DNA of 64,000 nt from an uncultured Chthonomonadaceae bacterium. GTDB lineage: Bacteria; Armatimonadota; Chthonomonadetes; Chthonomonadales; CAJBBX01. The notes beneath the pieces were generated by a model that saw only the letters and a list, made by a program, of their open reading frames with translations, did not search any database and was not told where the DNA came from. Shown here one piece after another: positions 19,656 through 57,993 of this stretch; position 1 is the first letter of the stretch; each line of letters begins with the position of its first letter. Where the stretch lies: the NCBI GenBank assembly GCA_964396385.1, contig CAYNFH010000004.1, forward strand, positions 5,008 through 69,007, read 5' to 3'. The translations under genes and the position numbers were made by a program.

Positions 19656-20714
19656 TTGCCGATAATGCCCTTGATGGTCATGGTCGGCACGCGAGCCGCC
19701 CCGGCGATGCAGCCGGAGGCGCCCGCGGAGGTCCTTGAAGACGGATCCGCGCGGCCCGCCCTCGTATACACCAATCCGGTTTACGCGCACGATTTTCCGG
19801 ACCCGTTCCTGCAGCACTTCGGAGATCGGTTCTTCGCCTTCGCTACCCAGAGCGCCGGCCACGGATTCCAGGTGATGGAGTCCGCGGATCTCGTGCACTG
19901 GACGCACCTGGGCACCGCGTTTATCCCCCCCTGGTCCTCCAAGCATCTCTGGGCGCCGGAAGTAGTCCGACACCGGGACCGCTTCTACATGACCTACTCC
20001 GCGCTGAACCCGCGCACACGCAAGCACGACATCGGGATAGCGACAGCGAACCACCCGGCCGGCCCGTTCACGCATCGCTCTATCCTGGTGCGCGGTGACG
20101 CCAACCGTTACGGAGTCATAGACGGCACGCTCTTCTTTGAGGACGACGGAACGCCGTACTTGGTCTATTCGGAGGAGAACCCGCGCACCATCGTAATCCG
20201 CCGGCTGACGCCGGACCTCCTTTGCGCCGAAGGCGAGGCCACCATACTGATCCGTCCCGACCGCTGTTGGGAGCGGGGCATCACAGAGGCGCCCACGCTC
20301 ATCCTGAGGAACGGCGTCTACCATCTCTTCTTCTCGGTAGGCTGGTACCAGAGCAGCAAGCAGGAGGCCTGCTATGCCGTCTGCCACGCCTCCGCCTCTT
20401 CTCTGCTCGGGCCGTACCGGAAATCGCCTTCGCCTATTCTCGCGACGGAGCCCGGCGCGGTATATGGCCCCGGCCACCAGTGTCTTATCACCCTGGAGAG
20501 CGGGGAGACCTGGATGGCCTACCACGCATGGGACAACCGCCGCCAGCCCCGCTACGGGTCCAATCCCGCCGGCCGCACGCTGCGTATCGACCGGCTGGTC
20601 TGGAAGGGCCGGCGCCCGGTAGTCTCCGGCCCCACCTTCATGCCCCAGCCCGCCCCCGGCGCAATCCGTTGTACAGTAGAGGTACAGCGAAGCGGCGCCT
20701 TTTCCGTCAAATGA
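19656..20714 (+). CDS. Glycoside hydrolase family 43
   Basis: NPVYAHDFPDPF N-terminal catalytic-Asp motif. Strong paralogue of the 29276-30346 gene at both protein and nucleotide level. Confidence 0.85.
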   Translation: MPIMPLMVMVGTRAAPAMQPEAPAEVLEDGSARPALVYTNPVYAHDFPDPFLQHFGDRFFAFATQSAGHGFQVMESADLVHWTHLGTAFIPPWSSKHLWAPEVVRHRDRFYMTYSALNPRTRKHDIGIATANHPAGPFTHRSILVRGDANRYGVIDGTLFFEDDGTPYLVYSEENPRTIVIRRLTPDLLCAEGEATILIRPDRCWERGITEAPTLILRNGVYHLFFSVGWYQSSKQEACYAVCHASASSLLGPYRKSPSPILATEPGAVYGPGHQCLITLESGETWMAYHAWDNRRQPRYGSNPAGRTLRIDRLVWKGRRPVVSGPTFMPQPAPGAIRCTVEVQRSGAFSVK

Positions 20715-20797
20715 CGCAGGACGTGTCGCCGCCCCGTAGAGGAAAGATAGCTCGTTAGTCCAGGAGCGATATTGCCGCACCCGGAAGGTTGACTACC

Positions 20798-22894
20798 ATG
20801 GGATTCGTCCGTACCGCATACGCTTGCCTCCGTCCGGCCGTAGCAATGGCCCTGACCGCGCTTTCCTGTTCGGCCTTCGGAGCGACCACCTACTACGTCT
20901 CCGCGAGCGGCAGCGACAGCAACTCCGGCACGCAGGCCGCACCATTCCGCCAGATCCGTGCAGCCATAGCGGTCATGCAGCCAGGCGACACGGCGCTGGT
21001 GGGGGACGGCTCCTATCTGGGCTTCACCATGAGCGGTATGAACGGCACTGCCTCGGCGCCAATCACGATAAAGGCAACGGGAACCGGGGCGCAGGTGACC
21101 GTCACCACAGACCGGACGGACAATCGCGATACTATCCTCATCAGCCTCTCAAGCTACATTGTGATAGACGGGCTGACCTCCTTCAACGCGAACCGGGCGG
21201 CGGTACGGATCGACCAGAGCCCTCACGTCACCGCGAAGAACGGAAAGTTCGGCAACAACACCACCTGGGGCATCTTCACGGACTTCTCGGACTACCTGGA
21301 CCTGGAGAACAATGAGTGCTACGGCTCGGTGCAGCAGCATGGGATCTACGTTTCCAACACGTGCACCAACCCCATAGTGCGAGGGAACCGCTGCCACGAT
21401 AACTACGGCAGCGGCATCCACATGAACGGGGACGTGAGCCAGGGAGGAGCCGGGATCATCACCGGAGCCCTGGTGGAGAACAACATCATCTACAACAACG
21501 GCGTGGGAGGCGGCTCCGGCATCAACATGGATGGGGTGCAGAGCTCCGTCATCAGAAACAACCTGATCTACAACAACCACGCCAGCGGTATCTCCGCCTA
21601 TCAGATAGACGCGGCTCAGGGACCCAAGAACGATGAGTTCTACCACAACACCGTGGACATGGCCTCCGATGCGCGATGGGCGCTGCATATCGAGCAGACG
21701 GCAGGCCCCATGACGGTCCGGAACAATATCTTGAACAACCTGAACCCGAACCATGGCGGCATCGACTTCAACACGCCCAACGACATAGCCAACACGGATA
21801 GTGGCTACAACATCATGGACCGGGTATCGCCGGACGATAGCTCCGTAGTTTCCCTCGCTGACTGGCAGTCGCAGGGCCATGAGGCAGGCTCGTTTTCCGC
21901 CACCGACTCGAGCTTGTTCGCCGCGAGCGGATCCGGCAACTACCACCTGAAGGCCGGCTCGCCCGCCATCGACAAGGGACAGACCCTCTCCTCCGTGACT
22001 GTCGACATGGAGGGGCACAGCCGCCCGCAGGGCGCCGCCTCGGACATCGGCTGCTACGAGTACCCGCAGGCCACGGTCAATCCGCACGTGCTGTGGAACA
22101 ACTCCGGCAAGATCTCTCTCTGGACGGTGACCGGCCCGAACCAGCCGAATCCCACCGACTACGGTCCGTTCCCCGGCTGGTCCGCTATCGGCATGGCATC
22201 GGGCAGCCCGGACCAGTACGTGCGGGTGCTGTGGCGCAGCGATTCGGGGGCCATCTCGCTTTGGACCGTCACCGCGCCGGGTACGTTCACCTATCTGGAC
22301 TACGGCCCCTACGCGGGCTGGACGGCCGCCGCGCTCGCCGTGGGCGGAGACAACCAGCCGCGCGTGCTCTGGGTGCGCACGGACGGCAGGATCTCCCTCT
22401 GGACCGTCCACGCCGACGGCACCTTCGCCACGGACGACTACGGCCCTTTCGCGGGCTGGCAGCCGGCGACGCTCGCGGTAGGATCGGACAACCACCCGCG
22501 CATCCTGTGGGTCTATCAGCCGGACCAGCGGATAAGCCTCTGGACCATCACCGGCCCGCAGACCTTCTCGTACGATAACTACGGCCCCTTCCCAGGCTGG
22601 TCCCCCACCATGATGGCGGTGGGCGGGGACAACCTCACCCGCATTGGATGGGTGAACGGGAGCCAGCTCTCCCTCTGGGCAATCACCGCGCCGGGCACGT
22701 TCACGCACGACGACTACGGCCCCTACCCCGGCTGGACGGCCCAGCTTCTGGCGGTGGGCGCGGACAACGAGCCGCGCGTCCTCTGGAATAACTCCGGCAA
22801 GATCTCCCTCTGGAGCATCACGGCGCCCGGCCAGGAGCAGAGCCAGGACTACGGGCCGTACGCCGGCTGGTCCCCCGTTGCGCTGACACCGTGA
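20798..22894 (+). CDS. Secreted right-handed parallel beta-helix protein with a C-terminal six-fold repeat domain of about 45 aa per repeat
   Basis: Signal peptide. SGSDSNSGT...PFRQI...QPGDTALVGDGSY and NN-rich beta-helix coils. C-terminal repeats of the form ISLWTV...DYGPFPGW...AVG.DN.PR.LW. Confidence 0.8.
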   Translation: MGFVRTAYACLRPAVAMALTALSCSAFGATTYYVSASGSDSNSGTQAAPFRQIRAAIAVMQPGDTALVGDGSYLGFTMSGMNGTASAPITIKATGTGAQVTVTTDRTDNRDTILISLSSYIVIDGLTSFNANRAAVRIDQSPHVTAKNGKFGNNTTWGIFTDFSDYLDLENNECYGSVQQHGIYVSNTCTNPIVRGNRCHDNYGSGIHMNGDVSQGGAGIITGALVENNIIYNNGVGGGSGINMDGVQSSVIRNNLIYNNHASGISAYQIDAAQGPKNDEFYHNTVDMASDARWALHIEQTAGPMTVRNNILNNLNPNHGGIDFNTPNDIANTDSGYNIMDRVSPDDSSVVSLADWQSQGHEAGSFSATDSSLFAASGSGNYHLKAGSPAIDKGQTLSSVTVDMEGHSRPQGAASDIGCYEYPQATVNPHVLWNNSGKISLWTVTGPNQPNPTDYGPFPGWSAIGMASGSPDQYVRVLWRSDSGAISLWTVTAPGTFTYLDYGPYAGWTAAALAVGGDNQPRVLWVRTDGRISLWTVHADGTFATDDYGPFAGWQPATLAVGSDNHPRILWVYQPDQRISLWTITGPQTFSYDNYGPFPGWSPTMMAVGGDNLTRIGWVNGSQLSLWAITAPGTFTHDDYGPYPGWTAQLLAVGADNEPRVLWNNSGKISLWSITAPGQEQSQDYGPYAGWSPVALTP

Positions 22895-23064
22895 AATCCC
22901 TTATACCTTATCGGCGATGGGCTTGAACTGCCCATCGGGGAGCAGGTGGGCGACCGAAACGCCAATCACAGGAGTCGTCCACACTGACGGCGAAACTCTC
23001 CTTCACGACGGTGCACTTCGAGGACATGTTCTTTAATACAGAATGCCCGAGGAGCGACGTAAGA

Positions 23065-23721
23065 ATGCCGGTAGCTGTACTCCATAGCGGCGGTCTCGAC
23101 TCTACTGTTTGCCTCCTCCTGGCTTTGCGGGACGGGAAACAGCCGGTCAGCATTGGCGTGGAGTACGACCAGTCGCATGTGGTTGAGTTGCACTACGCAG
23201 GCGAGCAGTGCAAGAGGCTAGGCGTCGAGCGAAGAGTTATCTCCGTACGATGGAATAAGCCAACTCGAAACATACCGCTGGATCGCAGCCCTGAGGAAAT
23301 GCGGAGCGGCGTTTCACCTGCATTCCTGCCTGCGAGGAACCTGGTGTTCCTCGCTCTAGCCGCGGCGGAAGCTGCTGCAATGACCGCCAGCGAGATCTGG
23401 ATCGGGGTAAATTCAGTTGACTTCTCAGGATACCCGGACTGCCGAAGTGAGTTCATCGCAGCGTTTGACGCGGTGCTCGATGCTGCGGTACCTGGCGGTC
23501 CCCGGGTCGTTGCGCCACTTCAGAATATGCGAAAGGCAGAAATCGCCCTCATGGCTCAGCAATACGGGCTGAGGCCAGGAGACACATGGAGCTGCTATCG
23601 CCCACAGGGCGATCCTGCGCAACCCTTTCCTTGTGGTCGGTGCGACGCTTGCATCCTGCACGCCGAAGCTTGGCAAGAGGTAGTCGACCAAGCACCAGAC
23701 GCGGCCGAGCGAAGCAAGTGA
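23065..23721 (+). CDS. QueC-like PP-loop ATPase (second, island-borne paralogue of 7-cyano-7-deazaguanine synthase)
   Basis: SGGLDS PP-loop, [23 protein letters not shown] and a C-terminal CGRCDAC. These align motif for motif with the canonical QueC at 57298-57993. GAGGAG RBS 10 nt upstream of the ATG at 23065. Confidence 0.85.
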   Translation: MPVAVLHSGGLDSTVCLLLALRDGKQPVSIGVEYDQSHVVELHYAGEQCKRLGVERRVISVRWNKPTRNIPLDRSPEEMRSGVSPAFLPARNLVFLALAAAEAAAMTASEIWIGVNSVDFSGYPDCRSEFIAAFDAVLDAAVPGGPRVVAPLQNMRKAEIALMAQQYGLRPGDTWSCYRPQGDPAQPFPCGRCDACILHAEAWQEVVDQAPDAAERSK

Positions 23722-23821
23722 TGGTCCTATTGCGGTAGCCTGTGGTGCTCGCCATCGGTACCACTCCCGGCCGGAGTTGGAGCTCAACCGCCTGCTGGAC
23801 CGCTTCGGCTTCTTTATCGCC

Positions 23822-25090
23822 ATGGCAAACGTCTACTTGGTGTCTTGCGCCAAGACCAAACGCGACTATCCAACTCGGGCCGACAGGCTCTACGCGTCTC
23901 CGCTGTTTGACAAGAGCCGCGCACTTGCAGCGGCTCGTGCGGACAAGTGGTTCATCCTGTCGGCGAAGTACGGCCTCCTCGACCCGTGTCAGGTGGTAGA
24001 GCCATACGACGAATCGTTGCGACAAATGACAGCACCTGCGCGTCGACTCTGGGCAGAGCGAGTCATGAATGCTCTCAAGCCGCACTTAGGGCCCGGTGAC
24101 ACCGTGACGGTCCTGGCCGGCAGCGCGTACTCCACGCACATCGCGTCATGCCTTAGCCAATTCGGCGTGTCCGTAATCCAACCGCTCGCAGGCCGTTCCC
24201 TGGGCGATCGACTACGATGGCTCAACCTCCAGCTGCTGGATGAGTCGGCTAGCAGCGACCTTAACCGTCTTTACAACTTGCTCGACCGGCTAGCCGAGGG
24301 CGTGGGGGGCCCGAGGTCAGTTGCCCAGGCTCGCGTTGGGGACAAGTGGCCCCGGCGCGGCCTCTACCTGTTCTTCGAACCTGGAGAATACCGCGCGCAC
24401 ACGGACTCGCAATTGAGAATCGTGCGAGTAGGAACTCACGCCGTGAGTACAGGCTCAGTTTCCACCCTCTGGGGCCGGCTCCGTGCCCATAAGGGAACCG
24501 GCGATGGAAACGGAAACCATCGCGGATCCATTTTCCGCTTGCACGTCGGGTCCGCGCTGTTGGCTCGCGGCGACATAGCTCCCTCAGTCCCAACGTGGGG
24601 TGCCGGTCACACCGCGCCCAGATCTGTACGAGAAGCTGAGTCCCATATCGAAAGAAGCGTAACAGAGTATATTGGCGCCATGTCTATTCTGTGGCTTAAC
24701 GTTGACGATGTGCCTGGCCCGGCGAGCGACCGGGCCTACCTTGAGCGGAACATCATCGCACTGGTCAGTAATCGGCAGCAACCGGCCGACCCCCCTAGCG
24801 GGAGCTGGCTAGGCCGATGGAGTCCGTATCATGCCATCAGAGAGAGCGGTTTGTGGAACCTACGCCACACGTTGGATACCTACGACCCCCTCTTTCTCGG
24901 CGTGCTCGAGCTCTACGTACAAGTCACACTGGGCGAGCTCCCTCTGCCGGCCGGCTCCATGGCACCTAGACAGCGTTCCGGCCGTGGCTCCAAGCCGTCT
25001 GACCGCACGTCCGAACCATCACTATTCGACAAGGAGATCCACCCCGATGTCGCTGACAACGAGGGCTACGGTACTCAAGAAGTATCCTAG
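23822..25090 (+). CDS. Two-domain protein: DUF6884/YaaA-like N-terminal module plus a GIY-YIG-like C-terminal module (tentative)
   Basis: N-terminus: VYLVSCAKTK...ILSAKYGLLDPCQVVEPYDESL. C-terminus: RRGLYLFFE...RIVRVGTH...LWGRLRAH...HRGSIFRLHVGSAL. Start could instead be TTG 23777. Confidence 0.6.
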   Translation: MANVYLVSCAKTKRDYPTRADRLYASPLFDKSRALAAARADKWFILSAKYGLLDPCQVVEPYDESLRQMTAPARRLWAERVMNALKPHLGPGDTVTVLAGSAYSTHIASCLSQFGVSVIQPLAGRSLGDRLRWLNLQLLDESASSDLNRLYNLLDRLAEGVGGPRSVAQARVGDKWPRRGLYLFFEPGEYRAHTDSQLRIVRVGTHAVSTGSVSTLWGRLRAHKGTGDGNGNHRGSIFRLHVGSALLARGDIAPSVPTWGAGHTAPRSVREAESHIERSVTEYIGAMSILWLNVDDVPGPASDRAYLERNIIALVSNRQQPADPPSGSWLGRWSPYHAIRESGLWNLRHTLDTYDPLFLGVLELYVQVTLGELPLPAGSMAPRQRSGRGSKPSDRTSEPSLFDKEIHPDVADNEGYGTQEVS

Positions 25091-26657
25091 ACCAGTTCTC
25101 GCAATGCGAGCGGCGAAGCGGAACAACATGCTGGGCCTAATACTTGGTGCCGGTACGAGTAAGGGCTTCAAACTGCCGATGTGGGAGGACCTCCTCGCAA
25201 ACCTCGCAGCCGACCCGAGGGTAAGTGGCAAAGCTGTCTACGATCCGAAGCAAAACGTTACTGCTAGAGCGGAGATGCTATATCGCCACTTCGCGGCTGC
25301 CAAGAGCGCCAGCTATGGAACCTCGGCTATGGATCCGAGAGCGCTCGATCGTCGCATTCGGGGGGAGTGGTTCGAGGTTATCCGGGAGCTCCTGTATGCG
25401 AACCTACCCCCGCCGGACGGCAAGTTCCATCGTGCGCATCCCTATCTGTCGGAATTCCTCGAGATCATCATCCAGTCGCCGCTCACCGTGACATACAACT
25501 TCGACAGCTGCATCGAAATGATGCTCGATGACTACCAGAAGGCGATGGCTCGAACTGAACGCCTCTACGAAGTCATATTTGACACCTACACTCCTTACCA
25601 GCGTCACAACGGCGTTATCTACCACCCGAACGGATTCCTGCCGGCAAATAAGCTTGAGGCGTTCAGCGACTCCATTGTATTCTCAGAAGAGCAGTTCGGC
25701 GACCAACTGCTCGACAGCGTAGCGGGCAGGTATTCGTCGCTGGCACACCACCTATCAAAGCATACGTGCCTGCTCTTGGGCGTCTCATTGAACGACGAGA
25801 CACTCCGCCACCTGCTCCACGCAAATGCTCGGATGAGCCCGGGTCATTACCACTACTGTGTAGAGTACCTGTCGGCGCCCGATGCTATGACGAACGAGGC
25901 GAAGGCAAGCCTATCCGAGTACAGGTTCGACATCTACAACCTCATAACCCTGTTTCTGACTGAGCCCGAAATAAAGGCCCTGGGCCAGTTGTTAACGTGC
26001 GACCTGGAGGCTCTTCGCAATGATGCGGGCCGTGCCAGAATCCCGCTAGTCTGGGTCTACTACATCACGGGCATCCCTGGCACTGGTAAGACCACTGTTT
26101 GCCGCCATTTAGGCGACCTCATCACACTTGGCGAGTGGCTTGAAGCACCGCTCGACCTCCTATCCACCGACTATACTTCTCTGACGAGTCCGGAGCGTGA
26201 GAAGGTAGATGCGTGGGTCGCCAACCAATTTGTGGAGAAGAACATGGCACTCCTAAGTGTACCAGAGGGCGTTATCGTCGTTGATCGCTGCCCACTGGAT
26301 CCACTCGCGTTCGTAGACACTCCCGACAGGCCCGCGAAGGCCTCGGCATACGGGCCACAGTTCCAACGTGGCCAGTCGGACAGGCATCCGGTTGCTGGAA
26401 GTGTCCTTATTCTTACGGCGGATCCGGTGGAGGTTTCGGCCCGGCTGGAACGACGGCAAGGGGAGCGCAAGGACCCTAAGTACCTTGAGAAACTCCAGGT
26501 CAATCACCTTGATATCTATAAGGCTCCCAGGGTCGTGCTCATGGATACGAGGGCACTAACGCTGGACCAACAGATTCGTTCTATCGCGCGTTACATACAT
26601 CGTGAAAAGTACGCGGAGGTCGATATCAGTGCGCGTCTGACGGAGCTGACGCATTGA
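25047..26657 (+). CDS. SIR2-like (SIR2_2-type) domain fused to a deoxynucleoside/NMP-kinase-like P-loop domain
   Basis: SIR2_2 motifs: LILGAGTSKGFKLPMWEDLL, VTYNFDSCIE, VIYHPNGFL, LLLGVSLND. Kinase-like motifs: Walker A GIPGTGKT, VIVVDRCPLD, and lid ARLERRQGERKD. AAGGAG RBS 11 nt before the ATG at 25047. Overlaps the upstream gene by 44 nt. Confidence 0.8.
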   Translation: MSLTTRATVLKKYPRPVLAMRAAKRNNMLGLILGAGTSKGFKLPMWEDLLANLAADPRVSGKAVYDPKQNVTARAEMLYRHFAAAKSASYGTSAMDPRALDRRIRGEWFEVIRELLYANLPPPDGKFHRAHPYLSEFLEIIIQSPLTVTYNFDSCIEMMLDDYQKAMARTERLYEVIFDTYTPYQRHNGVIYHPNGFLPANKLEAFSDSIVFSEEQFGDQLLDSVAGRYSSLAHHLSKHTCLLLGVSLNDETLRHLLHANARMSPGHYHYCVEYLSAPDAMTNEAKASLSEYRFDIYNLITLFLTEPEIKALGQLLTCDLEALRNDAGRARIPLVWVYYITGIPGTGKTTVCRHLGDLITLGEWLEAPLDLLSTDYTSLTSPEREKVDAWVANQFVEKNMALLSVPEGVIVVDRCPLDPLAFVDTPDRPAKASAYGPQFQRGQSDRHPVAGSVLILTADPVEVSARLERRQGERKDPKYLEKLQVNHLDIYKAPRVVLMDTRALTLDQQIRSIARYIHREKYAEVDISARLTELTH

Positions 26658-27154
26658 GCGACCAGCCAGACAAAGCCTCCAGGCACGGCTCCCGCCATCG
26701 AGTGTACCTAGCGGGCCCGCTTTTTAGCCGGGCCGAGCGTGAGTTCAACGGATTTCTGAAGCGGGAGCTTTCAGTTTACTTCGATGTATTCCTACCCCAG
26801 GAGGACGGTTGCCTCTTGGCTGAGATGACACGCAACGGCATTCCTCCCGAACAGGCATCTAGGCGTGTTTTCGAATGCGACATTGCGGAGCTCGACCGAT
26901 GTACGATACTCGTCGTCGTACTAGACGGGCGAGCGGTTGACGAGGGAGCTGCATTCGAACTCGGTTACGCCTTTGCAAAGGGGAAGACGTGCGTTGGCCT
27001 CCAGACTGATGAGCGACGACTCTTACGATGCGGCAACAACCCGATGATAGATGGTCCATGCAGCCGGCTGTTTCATAACGTTGACGCACTGCTGGCATGG
27101 GCGGATCAAGTCAGCACTGTGGGTCTTCAGGCGTATGTCGCCTCGGAGGGATAG
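26654..27154 (+). CDS. Nucleoside 2-deoxyribosyltransferase-like protein
   Basis: RVYLAGPLFS and VVVLDGRAVDEGAAFELGYAFAKGK motifs of the Nuc_deoxyrib_tr fold. The TTG start overlaps the upstream TGA (TTGA). GTG at 26702 is an alternative start. Confidence 0.8.
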   Translation: MSDQPDKASRHGSRHRVYLAGPLFSRAEREFNGFLKRELSVYFDVFLPQEDGCLLAEMTRNGIPPEQASRRVFECDIAELDRCTILVVVLDGRAVDEGAAFELGYAFAKGKTCVGLQTDERRLLRCGNNPMIDGPCSRLFHNVDALLAWADQVSTVGLQAYVASEG

Positions 27155-27167
27155 TAGAGTTCGACAG

Positions 27168-28241
27168 ATGTCCATTGTAGATTCCACAGCTCTCTTTTGG
27201 GAGCACCATTCCGACCTTCTGAATGAGTTCCGAACTTCGCAGCGCAGTTCAGCCGACCCAATTGGCAAGTTGCTCCGCGAGACGTGTAGCTCACCAACCG
27301 CGACGGTCGAGAGAGCCTTTGCCTTGGCGAAAGACATGATCCCCGCGGCTCAAGAGGGGGATTTTCGGGTACTCGAGTCTCTTGGACGCGATACAGTGTG
27401 GACAGCGCTGGTATATATGGAAACTTGGGGGCGTGATGATAAGGTCACTTCAGGAGAATTGGATGGTTCAGAGGAAGTGGATCCACGTCGGAGTCAGTTA
27501 GAGCGGCTCGAAGCGCTAGTCAAAGAGAAAGGCCATGACTACAACTCGGGCGGCGTGCCTATCCTCTCTTACTTCGTTTGGCAGGAGCGGAGCATCGTAC
27601 ACGAGATCCACAAGAGGGCGCAACGTCTTTACTCGATAGATAGAGCAGGTAGCGCGAAATTCGAAGGGGCTGCTTCAACGGCATTCGACCTGTGCTCCTT
27701 CGCACTGTTTCTGCTGGCCTACCTACGGACGTTCGGTCAGGACCCGCTTAACCGCTATACCATCTGCTCCTATGGGTACATCGATGCGATTGTGGGTACT
27801 CTTTGCTACCTCAGGCGCGATGGACTGACGCTTGTGCTGCGCTCCGATGATCGCAGGACCGGAGCCTGTAACGGTCTGGGCGGCAAAGTTGAAGGGGCGG
27901 AGACACCTCGTAGCTGCGCAATGCGCGAGATTGCGGAGGAGTGCGGCCTTCAGGTGACGGACTTGGCACTCAGAGGAATTGTCACAGTTGTTGGTGAGAG
28001 GACATGTCCGTGGCACCTGTTCATATACACAGGGTCGGATTGGGTAGGTGAACCTCGTGAATTGACCAGTCATGGCACTTTGGAATGGGTCCCTGATCAC
28101 GACCTCCCGCAGTTGTCGCTAGGGCAGGGTGACCGCTACTTCCTAGAGCGGTTGGATATGCTTGGTTGGTTCGAGGGAGTATTGGAGTACAGGGATGGGG
28201 CATTGGTCCGGCACGACTTCGTCCAGCACGGCGACGGATAA
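27168..28241 (+). CDS. All-alpha MazG/DUF1599-like domain (tentative) fused to a NUDIX hydrolase
   Basis: Nudix box GKVEGAETPRSCAMREIAEECGL fits G-x5-E-x7-REUxEExGU. N-terminal KGHDYNSG...HEIHKRAQRLYSI...AFDLCSFALFLLAY resembles DUF1599. ATG 27135 is an alternative start. Confidence 0.75.
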   Translation: MSIVDSTALFWEHHSDLLNEFRTSQRSSADPIGKLLRETCSSPTATVERAFALAKDMIPAAQEGDFRVLESLGRDTVWTALVYMETWGRDDKVTSGELDGSEEVDPRRSQLERLEALVKEKGHDYNSGGVPILSYFVWQERSIVHEIHKRAQRLYSIDRAGSAKFEGAASTAFDLCSFALFLLAYLRTFGQDPLNRYTICSYGYIDAIVGTLCYLRRDGLTLVLRSDDRRTGACNGLGGKVEGAETPRSCAMREIAEECGLQVTDLALRGIVTVVGERTCPWHLFIYTGSDWVGEPRELTSHGTLEWVPDHDLPQLSLGQGDRYFLERLDMLGWFEGVLEYRDGALVRHDFVQHGDG

Positions 28242-28386: not shown

Positions 28387-29244
28387 TTGCTCGCGCTGCA
28401 CATCACTCAGGATGAAATAGACGCCCGGACAATTCGGCCGGACCACCTGCAAGCCGCTGTCAAGGCGGTCCGGCAGGATGGGCTGGTGGTGCTCAACAAT
28501 GTGGTTGCAGAGGAGCACCTGGATCTGCTGCACGCACGGATGGTGGAGGACCTGGAGCTCCTCCAAAGCCGGCCGGACGCGCCGTTCAACTGGAACACCG
28601 GCAACATTCAGCAGGACCCGCCCCCCTTCCCGCCCTTCCTGTTCCGTGACGTGCTCGTGAACGATGTGGTGGTGGCTGTCACCCAGGCCATCCTGGGTAA
28701 GGGTGTGAAGAACGCGTACTACAGCGGCAACACCGCGCTTAACAGCACGGAGCGGCAGCCCGTCCACGTGGATACGGGCCAGCTATGGGCCAACCTGGCG
28801 GTGGCGCACCCCGCCTTCGGCCTGGTGGTTAACGTGCCGACCGTGGACATGACCGCGGAGAACGGCAGCACCGAGATATGGCCCGGGACGCACCTGGACA
28901 CAACCATCTCCGTCCATGACGAGCTGGAGCTACCTGCAGGGAAAGTGGAGCGCAGGCGCGCGGAGGCCCCGCCCATCCAGCCCACCGTCCGCCGCGGTGC
29001 CGCCCTCATCCGGGACCTCCGGCTCTGGCACGCAGGCATGCCCAACCGTACCACCACGCCGCGGCCCATGATCGCCATGATCCACTACGCCCGCTGGATG
29101 GACACGGGCACGCCGCTGCGGTTCCCGGCCGGCACGGAGCCGATCTTTGCGGACAGCCCGCTAAGGACCTGCGCCCGCTTCGTAGACGAGCCTATCGACT
29201 ACATCCGCGCGCCGCAGGCGTACAAGTACGGGGTTGAAGGTTGA
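28387..29244 (+). CDS. Phytanoyl-CoA dioxygenase (PhyH) family oxygenase
   Basis: HVDTG...TEIWPGTH...LWHAGMPN pattern. TTG start behind a TGAGGAGG RBS. Confidence 0.8.
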   Translation: MLALHITQDEIDARTIRPDHLQAAVKAVRQDGLVVLNNVVAEEHLDLLHARMVEDLELLQSRPDAPFNWNTGNIQQDPPPFPPFLFRDVLVNDVVVAVTQAILGKGVKNAYYSGNTALNSTERQPVHVDTGQLWANLAVAHPAFGLVVNVPTVDMTAENGSTEIWPGTHLDTTISVHDELELPAGKVERRRAEAPPIQPTVRRGAALIRDLRLWHAGMPNRTTTPRPMIAMIHYARWMDTGTPLRFPAGTEPIFADSPLRTCARFVDEPIDYIRAPQAYKYGVEG

Positions 29245-29275
29245 AGGACTTAGGGATAGATCAGAAGTAGGACGT

Positions 29276-30346
29276 ATGAGATACGCAACTCGGATAGGTC
29301 TAGTCATCCTATTGGGCTTAGGCGGGACTGTTGTCCCGTGGGTCCGTGTTCCGGCGCACGCGGGGCGTGCGGGGGCGGCCCGCACCTACACGAACCCGGT
29401 GTGGAACCACGATTTCCCGGATCCGTTTCTCCTGGAGTACGGGGGCCGGTTCTATGCGTACGCTACCCAGACCAACGGCTATGGCTACCAGGTGATGGAG
29501 TCGCCGGACATGGTCCGCTGGACCCATCGGGGCACGGCCTACATCCCGCCATGGTCCAGGGAGCACCTGTGGGCGCCGGAGGTGGTGCACTACCGCGGCC
29601 GGTTCTACCTGATCCACTCGGCGCGCAACCCGCAGAGCGGCCGGCACGACATCGGCATCGCTACCTCGGAGAGCCCGCTCGGCCCGTTCATGTACGGCGC
29701 CATCCTGGTGCGCGCGGACGAGAAGGTGGGCGGCTGCATCGACGCGGACATCTTCTTCGATAGGGACGGCACGCCCTATCTCACGTACTCGGAGGAGCAC
29801 CCGCGGCGCATCGTAGTGCGCAGGATGGCCCCGGACCTGATGTCGGTGGATTCGGAGGTGACGGAGCTGGTCCGCCCAGACCGGCCGTGGGAGCGCGGCG
29901 TCACAGAGGCGCCCACACTCATCCTGCGGAACGGCGTCTACCATCTCTTCTTCTCCGTGGGGTGGTACCAGAGCAACAAGAAGGACGCCTGCTACGCCGT
30001 CTGTCACGCCAGCAGCCGCTCCGTGCGGGGACCATTCGTGAAGGACCCGGACCCCATCCTCGCGACCGTGCCGGAGAAGGTGTACGGCCCCGGCCACCAG
30101 TGCGTAATCCGGCTTCCGAGCGGAGAGTGGTGGATGGGCTACCACGGCTGGGACAACCAGAACGAGCCGATGTACGGCTCCAACCCCATCGGCCGCTCCC
30201 TGCGCATCGACCGGATGGAGTGGCATCGCGACTCCCCCCGCGTTCTGGGCCCCACCACCACGCCACAGCCCGCCCCCAACCTCCGCGGCCTCCGCATGAA
30301 TCCCATACGGACCGAGCAAAGGAGCCACGCCCATGCCGGACGGTAG
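29276..30346 (+). CDS. Glycoside hydrolase family 43 (secreted paralogue)
   Basis: Signal peptide plus NPVWNHDFPDPF. High nucleotide identity to the 19656-20714 gene over the TEAPTLILRNGVYHLFFSVGWYQS region. Confidence 0.85.
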   Translation: MRYATRIGLVILLGLGGTVVPWVRVPAHAGRAGAARTYTNPVWNHDFPDPFLLEYGGRFYAYATQTNGYGYQVMESPDMVRWTHRGTAYIPPWSREHLWAPEVVHYRGRFYLIHSARNPQSGRHDIGIATSESPLGPFMYGAILVRADEKVGGCIDADIFFDRDGTPYLTYSEEHPRRIVVRRMAPDLMSVDSEVTELVRPDRPWERGVTEAPTLILRNGVYHLFFSVGWYQSNKKDACYAVCHASSRSVRGPFVKDPDPILATVPEKVYGPGHQCVIRLPSGEWWMGYHGWDNQNEPMYGSNPIGRSLRIDRMEWHRDSPRVLGPTTTPQPAPNLRGLRMNPIRTEQRSHAHAGR

Positions 30347-56255: not shown

Positions 56256-56615
56256 CTACTTCTCTCCCCTGTAGACGCAGCCGGAGGTGCACGTCTCCTG
56301 GACCACCACCTTCGCCAGCCCCGGCAGCCGCGGCTGAAGGCGGACCCAGATCCAGCGGGCCAGGTGCTCGCTGGTGGGGTTCTCCAGTCCCTCGATGTCG
56401 TTGAGGCAGTTGTGGTCTAGCACGTCGAAGAGCGGCTGGAAGGCGGTCTTCAGGTCCGCGAAGTCCATCACCCAGCCGGAATGCTCGCCCACCTCGCCGC
56501 GGACGTGCACCTCCACGCGGAAGGAGTGGCCGTGCATCCTCCCGCACTTGTGTCCGGCCGGCACGTTGGGCAGCCGGTGGGCGGCCTCGATCTGGAAGAC
56601 CTTGTAGATGTCCAC
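56256..56615 (-). CDS. queD: 6-carboxy-5,6,7,8-tetrahydropterin synthase
   Basis: FQIEAAHRL and [13 protein letters not shown] motifs. GTG start at 56613-56615. Last gene of the queC-queE-queD operon. Confidence 0.85.
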
Positions 56616-56626
56616 GGGTAGGGGCC

Positions 56627-57301
56627 TCAGGGGATCCCGATGAGCTTGTGCGTCTGCACGCTCAGGCGCCAGCGCGGATGCGCCAGACAGTACCGGATGG
56701 CGAGCCGCGTGTTCTCCGCCAGGTGGGGACCGTCCATAGGCTGCAGGTACCAACGCTGGAAGTCCAGGTGCTCAAAACGCTCCGGCGCCGCGCCCTCTTG
56801 CGGGTAGACGAGCTTCAGCTCGCTGCCGCGCTCCACCACCAGGGGCGCCCCCGCCTTGGGGCTCACCGTAAGCCAGTCGATTCCGACCGGCGCGGGGCGC
56901 GTGCCGTTGGTCTCGACCGCCACCTCTAAGCCATGGGCGTGGAAGGCCGCTATCAGCTCTTCGTCCAACTGGAGCAGCGGCTCACCGCCGGTGCAGACCA
57001 CGAAGGGCACGGAGGACGGAGAACGGAGGACGGAGGACGGAGTGCCGGTTCTGTGGTCGCTGGCCGGCCATTTCTGAGCAACGGCGGCCGCCAGCGAATC
57101 CGCGCTCCGGAACCTGCCGCCGCCGGGGCCGTTGGCGCCCACAAAATCCGTGTCGCAGAACTGGCAGATGGCGCGCCCGCGGTCCTCCTCGCGCCCTGTC
57201 CACAGGTTGCAGCCCGCAAACCGGCAGAACACCGCCGGGCGGCCCGCGTGGGCGCCCTCTCCCTGCAGCGTATAGTAGATCTCCTTTACGCTGTAGGTCA
57301 T
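56627..57301 (-). CDS. queE: 7-carboxy-7-deazaguanine synthase (Burkholderia-type radical SAM)
   Basis: [34 protein letters not shown]...CQFCDTDF and [15 protein letters not shown] overlap with queC. Contains an in-frame heptamer insert. Confidence 0.9.
57011..57045. repeat. GGAGGAC-type heptamer run inside queE
   Basis: GGAGGAC GGAGAAC GGAGGAC GGAGGAC GGAGTGC on the plus strand. Encodes ...[14 protein letters not shown]... on the minus strand. Confidence 0.85.
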
Positions 57302-57993
57302 CTGTGCGCGCGGTATCGCGTGGGGTCGGCTACGCCTGCTTCCTGAAAGCCTTTCCGGCGCAGGAGGCAGGAGTCGCACTCTCCGCACGCCTTCCCGGTG
57401 GGTGAGGGATCATAGCAGCTCAGCGTGGCGGCGTAGTCCACGCCGAGCTCGGTGCCCTTGCCGATGATCTGTGCCTTGGTGAGGTGGATGAGCGGCGTGT
57501 GGATCTTGATCCGCTGCGTTCCCTCTACGGCCGCCTTCGTCGCACGGTTGGCCATCTTCTCGTAGGCTTCGATGTACTCCGGCCGGCAGTCCGGGTAGCC
57601 TGAGAAGTCGAGGCTGTTTACGCCGATGTAGATGTCGCTGGCGCCCAGCACCTCCGCCCAGGCGAGCGCGAAGGAGAGGAAGATCGTGTTGCGGGCGGGC
57701 ACATAGGTGACGGGGATCCCCTCGCCCATCTCCTGCGCGCTTCGACCCTTCGGAACCGCGATATCCGCCGTAAGCGCCGACCCGCCGAACTGCCGGAGGT
57801 CCATATCCAGTACCACGTGCTCTGCAGCCCCGAGCTGGCGCGCGATACGCCGCGCCGCCTCCAGCTCCACCTGGTGCCGCTGCCCGTATTGGAAGCTCAG
57901 CGCGTAGGCGGCGTAGCCCTCGCTCCGGGCAATCGCCAGCACGGTGGCGGAATCCAGCCCACCGCTTAGAAGAACCACCGCCCTTCCGTTCAT
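57298..57993 (-). CDS. queC: 7-cyano-7-deazaguanine synthase
   Basis: [28 protein letters not shown] and CGECDSC motifs. First gene of the que operon. Confidence 0.9.

Follow-up and report, generated by a model that had tools for sequence, protein, structure and literature searches.

A five-gene block among carbohydrate-active enzyme genes

In the 64,000-nucleotide stretch of contig CAYNFH010000004.1 from an uncultured Chthonomonadaceae bacterium (Armatimonadota) that is analysed here and called the window in the following, five co-directional genes form a tightly packed block and encode a QueC paralogue, a fusion of a DUF6884 domain with a GIY-YIG module, a fusion of a SIR2 domain with a P-loop kinase-like domain (SIR2-kinase), a nucleoside 2-deoxyribosyltransferase (NDT), and a protein with a NUDIX domain (genes 1 to 5, Table 1). 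With its five genes, the block represents the most complete form of a modular cassette that moves horizontally, and the invariant core of this cassette consists of SIR2-kinase and NDT. Genes 2 and 3 overlap by 44 nt, genes 3 and 4 by the 4 nt TTGA, and genes 4 and 5 are separated by a gap of 13 nt, in agreement with the packing described in an earlier annotation made from the letters and open reading frames (ORFs) alone, which is called the sequence-only reading here. That reading had proposed a nucleotide-centred defence or DNA-modification system, and the view of a nucleotide-centred, defence-like cassette is supported; the cassette is conserved as well.

Table 1. Genes and domains of the cassette, in positions of the window
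Feature	Position	Strand	Basis
Gene 1, cassette QueC paralogue (7-cyano-7-deazaguanine synthase-like)	23011-23721	+	Pfam QueC 1.7e-50
Gene 2, DUF6884 (DpdC/YaaA-like) + GIY_YIG_3 nuclease-like fusion = PDC-M57 A+B	23777-25090	+	Pfam, PADLOC
DUF6884 domain, gene 2	23831-24226	+	Pfam residues 19-150 of the 437-aa ORF; PADLOC PDC-M57A 1.3e-34
GIY_YIG_3 / PDC-M57B module, gene 2	24254-24928	+	PADLOC PDC-M57B 1.3e-82, residues 160-384; PF26468
Gene 3, SIR2_2 + P-loop small-molecule/nucleoside-kinase-like fusion; cassette signature gene	25047-26657	+	Pfam, AlphaFold2, Foldseek
SIR2 domain, gene 3, residues ~1-317	25047-25997	+	Pfam SIR2_2, Foldseek, profile alignment
P-loop kinase-like domain, gene 3, residues ~318-536	25998-26657	+	AAA_18 36.3 bits, AAA_28 28.4 bits
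Gene 4, NDT, obligate partner of gene 3	26654-27154	+	Pfam 7.6e-20
Gene 5, all-alpha DUF1599-like N-terminal half + MTH1/MutT-like NUDIX; clade-specific accessory	27168-28241	+	Pfam, AlphaFold2, Foldseek
DUF1599-like core, gene 5, residues ~110-190	27495-27737	+	Transitive homologue matches
NUDIX domain, gene 5	27789-28238	+	Pfam, Foldseek

The cassette has a GC content of 57.8%, the lowest of any 5.2-kb segment of the 64 kb, as compared to 65.4% in the remainder. At third codon positions the difference is larger: the GC content there (GC3) amounts to 61-68% for the cassette genes, whereas the flanking genes (beta-helix, PhyH, GH43) and the housekeeping queC have 84-86%. This GC3 gap is strong evidence that the five-gene block is a foreign, horizontally acquired insert among GH43 and GH127 genes. 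The sequence-only reading had the direction of the compositional difference right, but its spot values of 48-52% inside the block and about 80% upstream were overstated: lines of 60 nt have 55-75% GC in the upstream gene, none of them reaching 80%, and 43-73% in the interior of the block.

A widespread core with optional partners

One genome per GTDB species was scanned for the SIR2-kinase, which resulted in 80 loci from more than 15 phyla, and the partners were searched for in these loci by tblastn with the domains of the window. The bacterial loci belong to Proteobacteria, Bacteroidota, Planctomycetota, Nitrospirota, Desulfobacterota, Firmicutes, Actinomycetota, Chloroflexota, Acidobacteriota, Armatimonadota, Elusimicrobiota, and Verrucomicrobiota-related groups, and archaeal loci are found in Promethearchaeota and Bathyarchaeota. 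NDT is present in 74 of the 80 loci, almost always directly downstream of the SIR2-kinase, DUF6884 in 45, the GIY-YIG module in 40, and QueC in 22, which are strictly nested within the 45 that have DUF6884. When every ORF in a surrounding of about 6 kb was clustered without prior assumptions, the same four families came out, and all other recurrent clusters were antisense shadow ORFs. The five genes as such, which the sequence-only reading had taken as the unit, are thus not the conserved entity: only the pair of SIR2-kinase and NDT is invariant, the rest is optional, and gene 5 is limited to about 13 proteins of the clade to which the window belongs. The expectation that the neighbourhood recurs in other genomes did come true, as an identical gene order exists in dozens of unrelated genomes, and this is an arrangement far beyond chance.

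The architecture tracks the similarity tree of the SIR2-kinases, with clades that contain only the core, DUF6884 plus the core, or QueC, DUF6884 and the core. The full five-gene order is found in L081/L082 and L083, and elsewhere the fifth slot is occupied by a FEN-type 5'-3' exonuclease (L084), by a PD-(D/E)xK-like protein, or by nothing (L085). An additional universal partner was sought in the core-only loci, and none was found; the genes upstream of these cores are heterogeneous (5'-nucleotidase, UvrA-like, MutS-like, fumarase, tannase, integrase, KAP NTPase). Core-only versions are native in Pseudomonas, for instance in Pseudomonas sp. GM48 and in P. guariconensis.

Among 50,697 phage genomes there is none with the SIR2-kinase, and of 2.9 million viral contigs only 2 contain it. 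Because it is nearly absent from viruses, the cassette is to be regarded as cellular or as borne on plasmids and integrative and conjugative elements (ICEs), and not as a phage DNA-modification pathway.

The SIR2-kinase fusion

The fusion of a SIR2_2 domain with a P-loop kinase-like domain that had been recognized in gene 3 is supported by Pfam, with SIR2_2 at 1.3e-14 and with AAA_18 and AAA_28 both above their cutoffs. There are 166 full-length homologues with 33-50% identity, and invariant residues are found in both halves, namely the NAD-binding glycines G34 and G36 (GAGxS loop), the catalytic N151 and D153, and H193 in the SIR2 domain, followed by the Walker A residues G342, G347 and K348, and by R414, D418 and R466. 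The AlphaFold2 model (predicted local distance difference test score, pLDDT, 89.7) has ThsA, DSR2 and KomC as its top Foldseek matches, and as far as the model goes, the SIR2 domain of gene 3 is closest in fold to these antiphage NADases. In a profile alignment, N151 of the motif TYNFD aligns with N112 of ThsA (chain numbering). It is likely from the sequence that the domain has NADase activity, albeit this is not assured, a point that is taken up below. The C-terminal domain can be assigned clearly, at the level of its sequence, to the P-loop kinase fold class.

The deoxyribosyltransferase and its replacement

Also the NDT fold of gene 4 was called correctly from the sequence (Pfam Nuc_deoxyrib_tr, Table 1). 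Enzymes of this type have an active site made up of a Tyr, two Asp, and a Glu nucleophile, plus an Asn and a Met that are contributed by the partner subunit. Gene 4 is about 55% identical (E 7e-37) to DpNDT from Desulfotalea psychrophila (PDB 7O62), and its residues Y18, D76, D96, E102, N129 and M131 correspond to Y16, D74, D94, E100, N127 and M129 of that enzyme; all six are near-invariant across the 74 cassette NDTs. DpNDT even falls within the clade of the cassette NDTs, so that the likeness consists of the identity, the shared active-site residues, and this placement; the difference is that DpNDT has been studied as an isolated biocatalyst only. It is a biochemically proven type II deoxyribosyltransferase, which its authors described as a poor catalyst with the canonical bases and as nearly inactive at the growth temperature of the organism (PMC12372993). 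The sluggishness with canonical bases is compatible with a non-canonical natural substrate. Since no active-site residue of a deoxyribosyltransferase is missing in gene 4, it probably acts on a deoxynucleoside and not on NAD+.

One variant of the cassette differs in this enzyme. In the protein P0032 (L091, 3445-5616), SIR2 and P-loop kinase are fused to a third domain, a 6-oxopurine phosphoribosyltransferase (PRT), which matches 6-oxopurine PRTs (GpT-2 at 2e-21), and no NDT was detectable in that locus. NDT and PRT both join a free base to a sugar, and the presence of a PRT in the place of NDT argues that the logic of the cassette is the conversion of a free purine-like base to a nucleoside or nucleotide, and not the destruction of nucleotides. 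The sequence-only reading had offered, as one of two hypotheses, a route from base via deoxynucleoside to nucleotide, and this part gains support from the intact NDT active site and from the PRT. Two details of that hypothesis, a GIY-YIG nuclease acting on unmodified DNA and a NUDIX enzyme removing the competing dGTP, are not supported.

The DUF6884-GIY-YIG protein

Gene 2 was described as a DUF6884/YaaA-like module followed by a GIY-YIG-like module, and both calls hold. DUF6884 is recognized by Pfam at 1.6e-42, and its motifs CxxxK and LSAxxG are invariant. These are the motifs that the Pfam curators describe as conserved in DUF6884, together with a YaaA-like DNA-binding fold and a predicted base flipping (PMC11701544). 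For the second module, the assignment rests on the PF26468 (GIY_YIG_3) annotation that is precomputed for the identical database protein P0121 and for more than 100 homologues, on the PADLOC match to PDC-M57B, and on conserved motifs; a Pfam scan of gene 2 with the local library gave no GIY-YIG match, and a profile search against the PDB gave only a marginal YaaA match and spurious ones. PADLOC finds PDC-M57A (residues 16-152) and PDC-M57B on one polypeptide. As P0121 has 422 aa, the true start of gene 2 is likely the ATG at 23822, as in the database gene call.

What the sequence-only reading had overlooked, its correct domain call notwithstanding, is that DUF6884 is the family of DpdC. In the Dpd system, DpdC has been assigned to DUF6884 (PMC12235509), under the name DUF328 in another study (PMC5699537), and it converts DNA containing 7-cyano-7-deazaguanine (preQ0) to DNA containing 7-amido-7-deazaguanine (ADG) (PMC10164549). 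The relation to DpdC is the strongest argument for a genuine 7-deazaguanine link of the cassette. The DpdC model of PADLOC matches gene 2 only with E = 0.032, despite the shared Pfam family.

The two modules are not always fused. They are encoded by separate adjacent genes in L026, L032, L062 and L079, and they also occur in archaea and Firmicutes as two adjoining genes downstream of NDT. The form in the window is a fusion upstream of the SIR2-kinase. In L057, L059, L061 and L077, a short DUF6884 protein without GIY-YIG is encoded directly upstream of the SIR2-kinase. In phages, DUF6884 (DpdC/YaaA-like) occurs only by itself: 16 phage records encode such a protein with a length of about 135 aa, none of them fused to GIY-YIG, and the phages include haloarchaeal viruses such as Halorubrum tailed virus 29 and Halobacterium phage ChaoS9 as well as Caulobacter, Myxococcus (Mx4) and Microbacterium phages (records H3-H17).

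The QueC paralogue

That gene 1 is a PP-loop QueC paralogue was confirmed by Pfam, by the PP-loop (SGGxDS), and by the Zn motif C-x13-C-x2-C-x2-C. Its best PDB match is the QueC structure 3BL5 (3e-27), the Cap9 structure follows at 3e-7, and the relation to QatC is distant (18.9 bits with the NCBIfam model, the cutoff of which is 280; 3.7e-4 with the PADLOC model). With TIGR00364, gene 1 scores 147.8 bits at a cutoff of 150.3, as compared to 133-170 bits for the QueCs of the cassettes and 212 for the housekeeping copy. It shares 39% identity with the housekeeping QueC of the window and 48-60% with cassette QueCs of other phyla. From the QueC alignment, the true start is likely the ATG at 23065.

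As noted already in the sequence-only reading, the window contains a housekeeping queC-queE-queD operon elsewhere (56256-57993, minus strand), and it is intact; with such an intact housekeeping QueC, the host does not depend on the cassette QueC for its supply of 7-carboxy-7-deazaguanine (CDG) and preQ0. In the cassettes, QueC occurs only alongside DUF6884 (22/22) and always immediately upstream of the DUF6884 gene.

Genes of queuosine metabolism were seen near some cassettes. A queuosine salvage gene (PF10343) and tgt, the gene of tRNA-guanine transglycosylase (TGT), follow directly downstream of the cassette in L015 (6999-9630), and in 4 of the 80 loci (L013 7044-8390, L015, L016, L046) the distance between tgt and the start of the SIR2-kinase is no more than about 7 kb, which exceeds chance, but L013 and L015 are related genomes.

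The NUDIX protein of gene 5

The perfect Nudix box that had been noticed in gene 5 is real (GKVEGAETPRSCAMREIAEECGL; consensus GX5EX7REUXEEXGU), Pfam recognizes NUDIX at 5.9e-13, and by Foldseek the domain matches MTH1 with a template modelling (TM) score of 0.84-0.88 normalised to the target. In the AlphaFold2 model (pLDDT 81.5) the N-terminal half is all-alpha, and Foldseek searches of the model against PDB and viral structures are dominated by NUDIX matches. The assignment of this half to a DUF1599/MazG-like module stood only in part. Hidden Markov models of DUF1599 (PF07659) and of the MazG type gave no direct match to any of the 13 family members even at E<=10, whereas an exhaustive phmmer search with this half led to short proteins that are related to residues ~110-190 and stand alone, and two of these (P0262, P0268) pass the Pfam threshold for DUF1599, while two others (P0267, P0273) are of the MazG type (PRA-PH) with a weak DUF1599 match. 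The link is thus transitive, via relatives. In Pfam, DUF1599 is called 'nucleotide modification associated domain 1'. The family of gene 5 comprises only 13 proteins, the contigs of which coincide with those of the closest cassette relatives and apparently all bear the cassette; in the 80 cassette loci, tblastn found gene 5 in none.

Mobility and neighbouring genes

The genes that flank the cassette differ between loci, and mobile elements are found next to many copies. In L081, genes for a serine recombinase, RuvC, a DNA methyltransferase and a TrwB-like protein lie nearby, in L085 and L086 there are Y1 and DDE transposases at the cassette, in L036 a phage integrase lies near it, and in L050 the ICE genes TraG/TraD and DUF4400 are present. 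In L086/L087 (8280-11265), a DDE transposase gene (~414-443 aa, minus strand) lies inside the SIR2-kinase gene and splits it, and this inactivation of a cassette copy by a transposon suggests that the cassette is costly or toxic. On the 356-kb plasmid pCC1099_2 of Rhizobium sp. CC1099 (L088, 4342-7980), there is an overlap between the gene of a KAP-family P-loop NTPase (1,212 aa) and the start of the SIR2-kinase in a core-only cassette, and this NTPase may be an alternative upstream partner in place of the DUF6884-GIY-YIG protein. An FRG-domain protein and IS66 elements are encoded nearby in that locus.

Toxin-antitoxin genes (ParE/Phd and an MNT-type nucleotidyltransferase) form an island around the cassette with the PRT fusion (L091), and an Mrr-type nuclease gene adjoins NDT in L016. 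When the 104 nearest large ORFs of 56 loci were surveyed with PADLOC and Pfam as a raw tally, the neighbours included defence genes (Hachiman HamB, a PglX/type IIG enzyme, a CBASS cyclase with a 4TM effector, CapP-like M78 peptidases, Eco29kI) as well as IS66 transposases and integrases.

In the window itself, flanking direct repeats, a tRNA, and an adjoining integrase were sought as scars of an insertion, and none were found. The placement among genes of carbohydrate-active enzymes (CAZymes) is as the sequence-only reading had described it, and the order of the genes is GH43, beta-helix, cassette, PhyH, GH43, GH127. The two GH43 paralogues (19656-20714 and 29234-30346) are 66% identical over 299 aa and bracket the cassette together with its neighbours beta-helix and PhyH, with GH127 following. 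The foreign cassette lies inside what seems to be a duplicated CAZyme cluster. The beta-helix gene (20789-22894) contains four tandem copies of ~119 nt at 22254-22786, with a spacing of 135-141 nt and 66-78% identity, which encode repeated ~46-aa modules of the type 'ISLWTV...DYGP(F/Y)(A/P)GW' in the C-terminal half of the protein, and an additional 102-nt repeat pair at 22082/22772.

Comparison with known systems

In the open literature (subscription-only literature was outside the search), no publication was found that names a system of SIR2-kinase and NDT, which agrees with the earlier suggestion of an undescribed system. With respect to PADLOC, this holds for the SIR2-kinase and NDT, which are in no named system, but not for gene 2, which is already listed as the uncharacterised candidate PDC-M57. 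Both components of PDC-M57 are present in gene 2, and the split two-gene form occurs in the four loci with separate genes mentioned above; PADLOC-DB 2.0 models only these two modules, however, whereas here they are accessory to an unmodelled core. The sequence-only reading had also held that the block is neither Qat, nor type IV CBASS (cyclic oligonucleotide-based antiphage signalling system), nor Dpd, and indeed their defining components are absent from the five proteins and from the conserved neighbours. For the same reason, membership in Thoeris, Kongming and the NDT-retrons is rejected.

Among the closest known systems is Kongming (KomABC). Like Kongming, the cassette has a SIR2 effector, a putative NADase in its case, with KomC among the top structural matches of gene 3, and in Kongming this effector is under the control of a base-modified deoxynucleotide, deoxyinosine triphosphate (dITP), with a base-modifying enzyme and a partner of the non-canonical-NTP pyrophosphatase fold. 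In such an analogy, NDT (with or without QueC) would take the base-modifying part and the MTH1-like NUDIX the pyrophosphatase part. The differences are that the adenosine deaminase KomA and the HAM1-like KomB are missing, that Kongming relies on a phage kinase while the SIR2 of the cassette carries its own fused P-loop kinase, that the chemistry is deamination in Kongming and would be base exchange or 7-deazaguanine chemistry in the cassette, and that the NUDIX partner is present in one clade only. No deaminase or HAM1 domain was found in the five proteins or in the conserved neighbours, so that of the Kongming components only the SIR2 fold is in common, and the cassette is thus not a Kongming system.

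Thoeris (ThsA/ThsB) shares the two-gene logic of a small enzyme with N-glycosidase fold and a SIR2 that is fused to a nucleotide-binding domain. ThsA is the best match of the SIR2 domain of gene 3 in both sequence and structure, and TIR and NDT domains have been reported to be distantly similar in sequence (bioRxiv 10.64898/2026.05.01.722283). The cassette NDT differs in its complete deoxyribosyltransferase active site. None of the five proteins matches TIR, SLOG or Macro, and the ThsA model of PADLOC matches only the SIR2 part with E = 0.001, so Thoeris membership was rejected.

With Dpd, the cassette has in common the DUF6884 (DpdC-family) module, often a QueC, and the horizontal mobility. 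Its DUF6884 is fused to GIY-YIG, and DpdA (TGT-like), DpdB and the restriction genes DpdD-K are absent from the cassette, DpdA and DpdB also from the conserved neighbours. QatABCD and type IV CBASS are similar in having a QueC-family PP-loop enzyme in a defence setting, but the cassette QueC is near genuine QueC and far from both QatC and Cap9. Equivalents of QatA, QatB and QatD (a TatD nuclease) are not conserved, and the QatC score stays far below its cutoff; neither a cGAS/DncV-like nucleotidyltransferase (CD-NTase) nor a TGT-like Cap10 is present in the cassette, and the match to Cap9 is the weak one given above. The NDT-retrons (retron-Eco1/Ec86) were rejected as no reverse transcriptase domain occurs in the five proteins or the conserved neighbours; a non-coding RNA was not searched for.

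Possible function and alternative explanations

It is probable that the cassette serves in conflict or defence. To our knowledge, all antiphage sirtuins characterised so far have a sensor as the domain or partner to which SIR2 is attached, and because the kinase is invariably fused to SIR2, a regulatory coupling between the two is preferred here. NDT would move deoxyribose onto a non-canonical purine-like base, which in the QueC-bearing versions would be preQ0 or a related 7-deazaguanine, the supply of which would be secured by their own QueC. The kinase domain would bind or phosphorylate the resulting deoxynucleoside, and this event would license the fused SIR2 to consume NAD+, whereby the infection would be aborted. 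The DpdC-like DUF6884-GIY-YIG add-on may recognise 7-deazaguanine in nucleic acid and then cut, and the DUF1599-like/MTH1-like NUDIX protein may hydrolyse the modified dNTP, either to keep the pathway silent in uninfected cells or to protect the host DNA. The scheme resembles Kongming, in which a base-modified dNTP activates SIR2, and Thoeris, as far as such analogies reach. The composite reading, a mobile modular SIR2 defence cassette in which a non-canonical deoxynucleotide made by NDT and kinase licenses NAD+ consumption, is in our estimate evenly poised between right and wrong, whereas the signalling scheme as such, with a modified nucleotide that licenses SIR2, is less likely than not. 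If a nucleotide is made by the version in the window, it is probably based on 7-deazaguanine. A complete immune route, in which the base from QueC becomes a deoxynucleoside by NDT and a nucleotide by the SIR2-fused kinase, to serve as a messenger for SIR2 or as a DNA mark for the DpdC-like GIY-YIG nuclease to read, with the MTH1-like NUDIX as the off-switch, has to be considered doubtful.

Several observations weigh against such a licensing of SIR2 by a modified nucleotide. The catalytic His of ThsA (H152 in YKMHG) and of KomC (H146) align in a profile alignment with the near-invariant Asn in the motif YHPNG of gene 3, and the invariant H193 (VIYHPNG, residues 190-196) lies two residues upstream of the canonical position. 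It is because of this displaced His that the NADase activity is not assured, and in this motif either the catalytic residue may have shifted or the chemistry of SIR2 may have changed. As a profile, the kinase domain has only weak matches in the PDB, which are shikimate kinase, adenylate kinase, YorR, and deoxynucleoside kinases, and the NDT of gene 4 has no sensor domain. About 44% of the loci (~35) have the two-gene core only, and if the base is preQ0, these must rely on the host pathway for it; otherwise their base differs. PADLOC has no model for either core protein, many neighbours of the cassettes are ordinary housekeeping or metabolic genes, and the defence genes beside the loci, being a raw tally, are only suggestive. 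It may also be speculated that nicotinamide released by SIR2 is the acceptor for NDT and that the kinase, by way of AAA_28 (like the ribosylnicotinamide kinase, RNK, of NadR), phosphorylates the product.

The same core-only loci, lacking both QueC and DUF6884, would fit with a pure depletion of metabolites, which was the other hypothesis of the sequence-only reading. The SIR2 would destroy NAD+, NDT would be mainly an N-glycosidase, and the kinase would trap deoxynucleosides, so that phage precursors are drained without any signalling nucleotide, and GIY-YIG would be an extra DNA-degrading effector. The SIR2 domains nearest in fold are indeed NAD+-depleting effectors, and NDT-like effectors that deplete NAD+ have been described for retron-Eco1 (review PMC13276650), but the closest characterised NDT is a true transferase, the purine PRT at the NDT position in one lineage builds nucleotides rather than destroying them, and depletion alone can hardly explain why a cassette should have a QueC of its own and a NUDIX of the MTH1 type; pure depletion is thus unlikely. 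Improbable is also a marking of DNA, which refines the base-to-nucleotide hypothesis of the sequence-only reading. QueC, NDT and kinase together with host kinases would produce a 7-deazaguanine dNTP, this would enter the DNA during replication, and there the DpdC-like/GIY-YIG protein would either cut the marked DNA (suicide or poison) or spare the marked self (restriction-modification), with NUDIX tuning the pool. This would leave the universally conserved SIR2 without a role, host and phage DNA would be marked alike by a route at the level of the pool, which makes self and non-self indistinguishable, the cassette has no DpdA/TGT-like inserting enzyme, and the core exists without DUF6884 and GIY-YIG, just as there are four loci with DUF6884 but without GIY-YIG. 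On the other side, DUF6884 belongs to the DpdC family that acts on preQ0 in DNA and is fused here to a nuclease module, QueC is strictly nested with DUF6884, the NUDIX is MTH1-like, and the alternative fifth genes encode the DNA nucleases FEN and PD-(D/E)xK.

If the cassette were not a defence system at all, it might be a mobile operon for nucleoside salvage, nucleotide sanitation or DNA repair, or a small biosynthetic cluster for 7-deazapurine nucleosides. All parts have housekeeping or biosynthetic relatives (NDT in salvage, MutT/MTH1, QueC), YaaA/YfjM have been linked to DNA damage (PMC11701544), and the many metabolic neighbours have been mentioned. However, the SIR2_2 domain is closest to antiphage NADases, the distribution over more than 15 phyla is patchy without conservation of the flanks, the cassettes are associated with integrases, insertion sequence (IS) elements, ICEs, toxin-antitoxin systems and defence genes, one copy has been inactivated by a transposon, and a conserved transporter or regulator that would be typical of biosynthetic clusters is missing, all of which makes such a role quite improbable. 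Even less probable is that QueC is a protein-conjugating enzyme like Cap9 and QatC, which would transfer a 7-deazaguanine carboxylate onto a partner, most likely the DUF6884-GIY-YIG protein, to arm or restrain it. The position of QueC immediately upstream of the DUF6884 gene would suit such a partnership, QatB has been proposed as the substrate of QatC (PMC13376578), the solved Cap9 structure is matched by the cassette QueC, and the latter forms a clade separate from the housekeeping QueC, with 39% identity and with TIGR00364 scores that straddle the cutoff; but in its match to 3BL5, its canonical length and its Zn cysteines it is much nearer to bona fide QueC than to Cap9 or QatC, and it has no extra domains.

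Significance

SIR2-effector defence as a kind is already known, and what would be new is the type of the control module and of the accessory modules. If the licensing of SIR2 by a modified nucleotide is correct, the control module would derive from nucleoside-salvage enzymes (NDT or purine PRT plus kinase) and not from cyclases, TIR domains or protein sensors, and base-modified nucleotides as immune messengers would extend beyond the dITP of Kongming, by which this recent idea has been represented so far. The 7-deazaguanine chemistry of QueC and the DpdC-like DUF6884 would obtain a third role in defence, beside the DNA modification by Dpd and the protein conjugation by QueC-like enzymes, and the complete immune route would be the first entry of 7-deazaguanine into the deoxynucleotide pool that is independent of TGT/DpdA. 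There would also be a biological context for DUF6884/PDC-M57, for the DUF1599-NUDIX fusions, and for the sluggish 'psychrophilic' DpNDT that has been used as a biocatalyst. As the cassette is compact (2-5 genes, <=~5.2 kb) and has native core-only versions in Pseudomonas, these ideas are directly testable. If the reading is confirmed, the cassette would be a widespread addition to the immunity by SIR2 and NAD+ depletion, with bacterial and archaeal carriers from more than 15 phyla and with copies on plasmids and ICEs.

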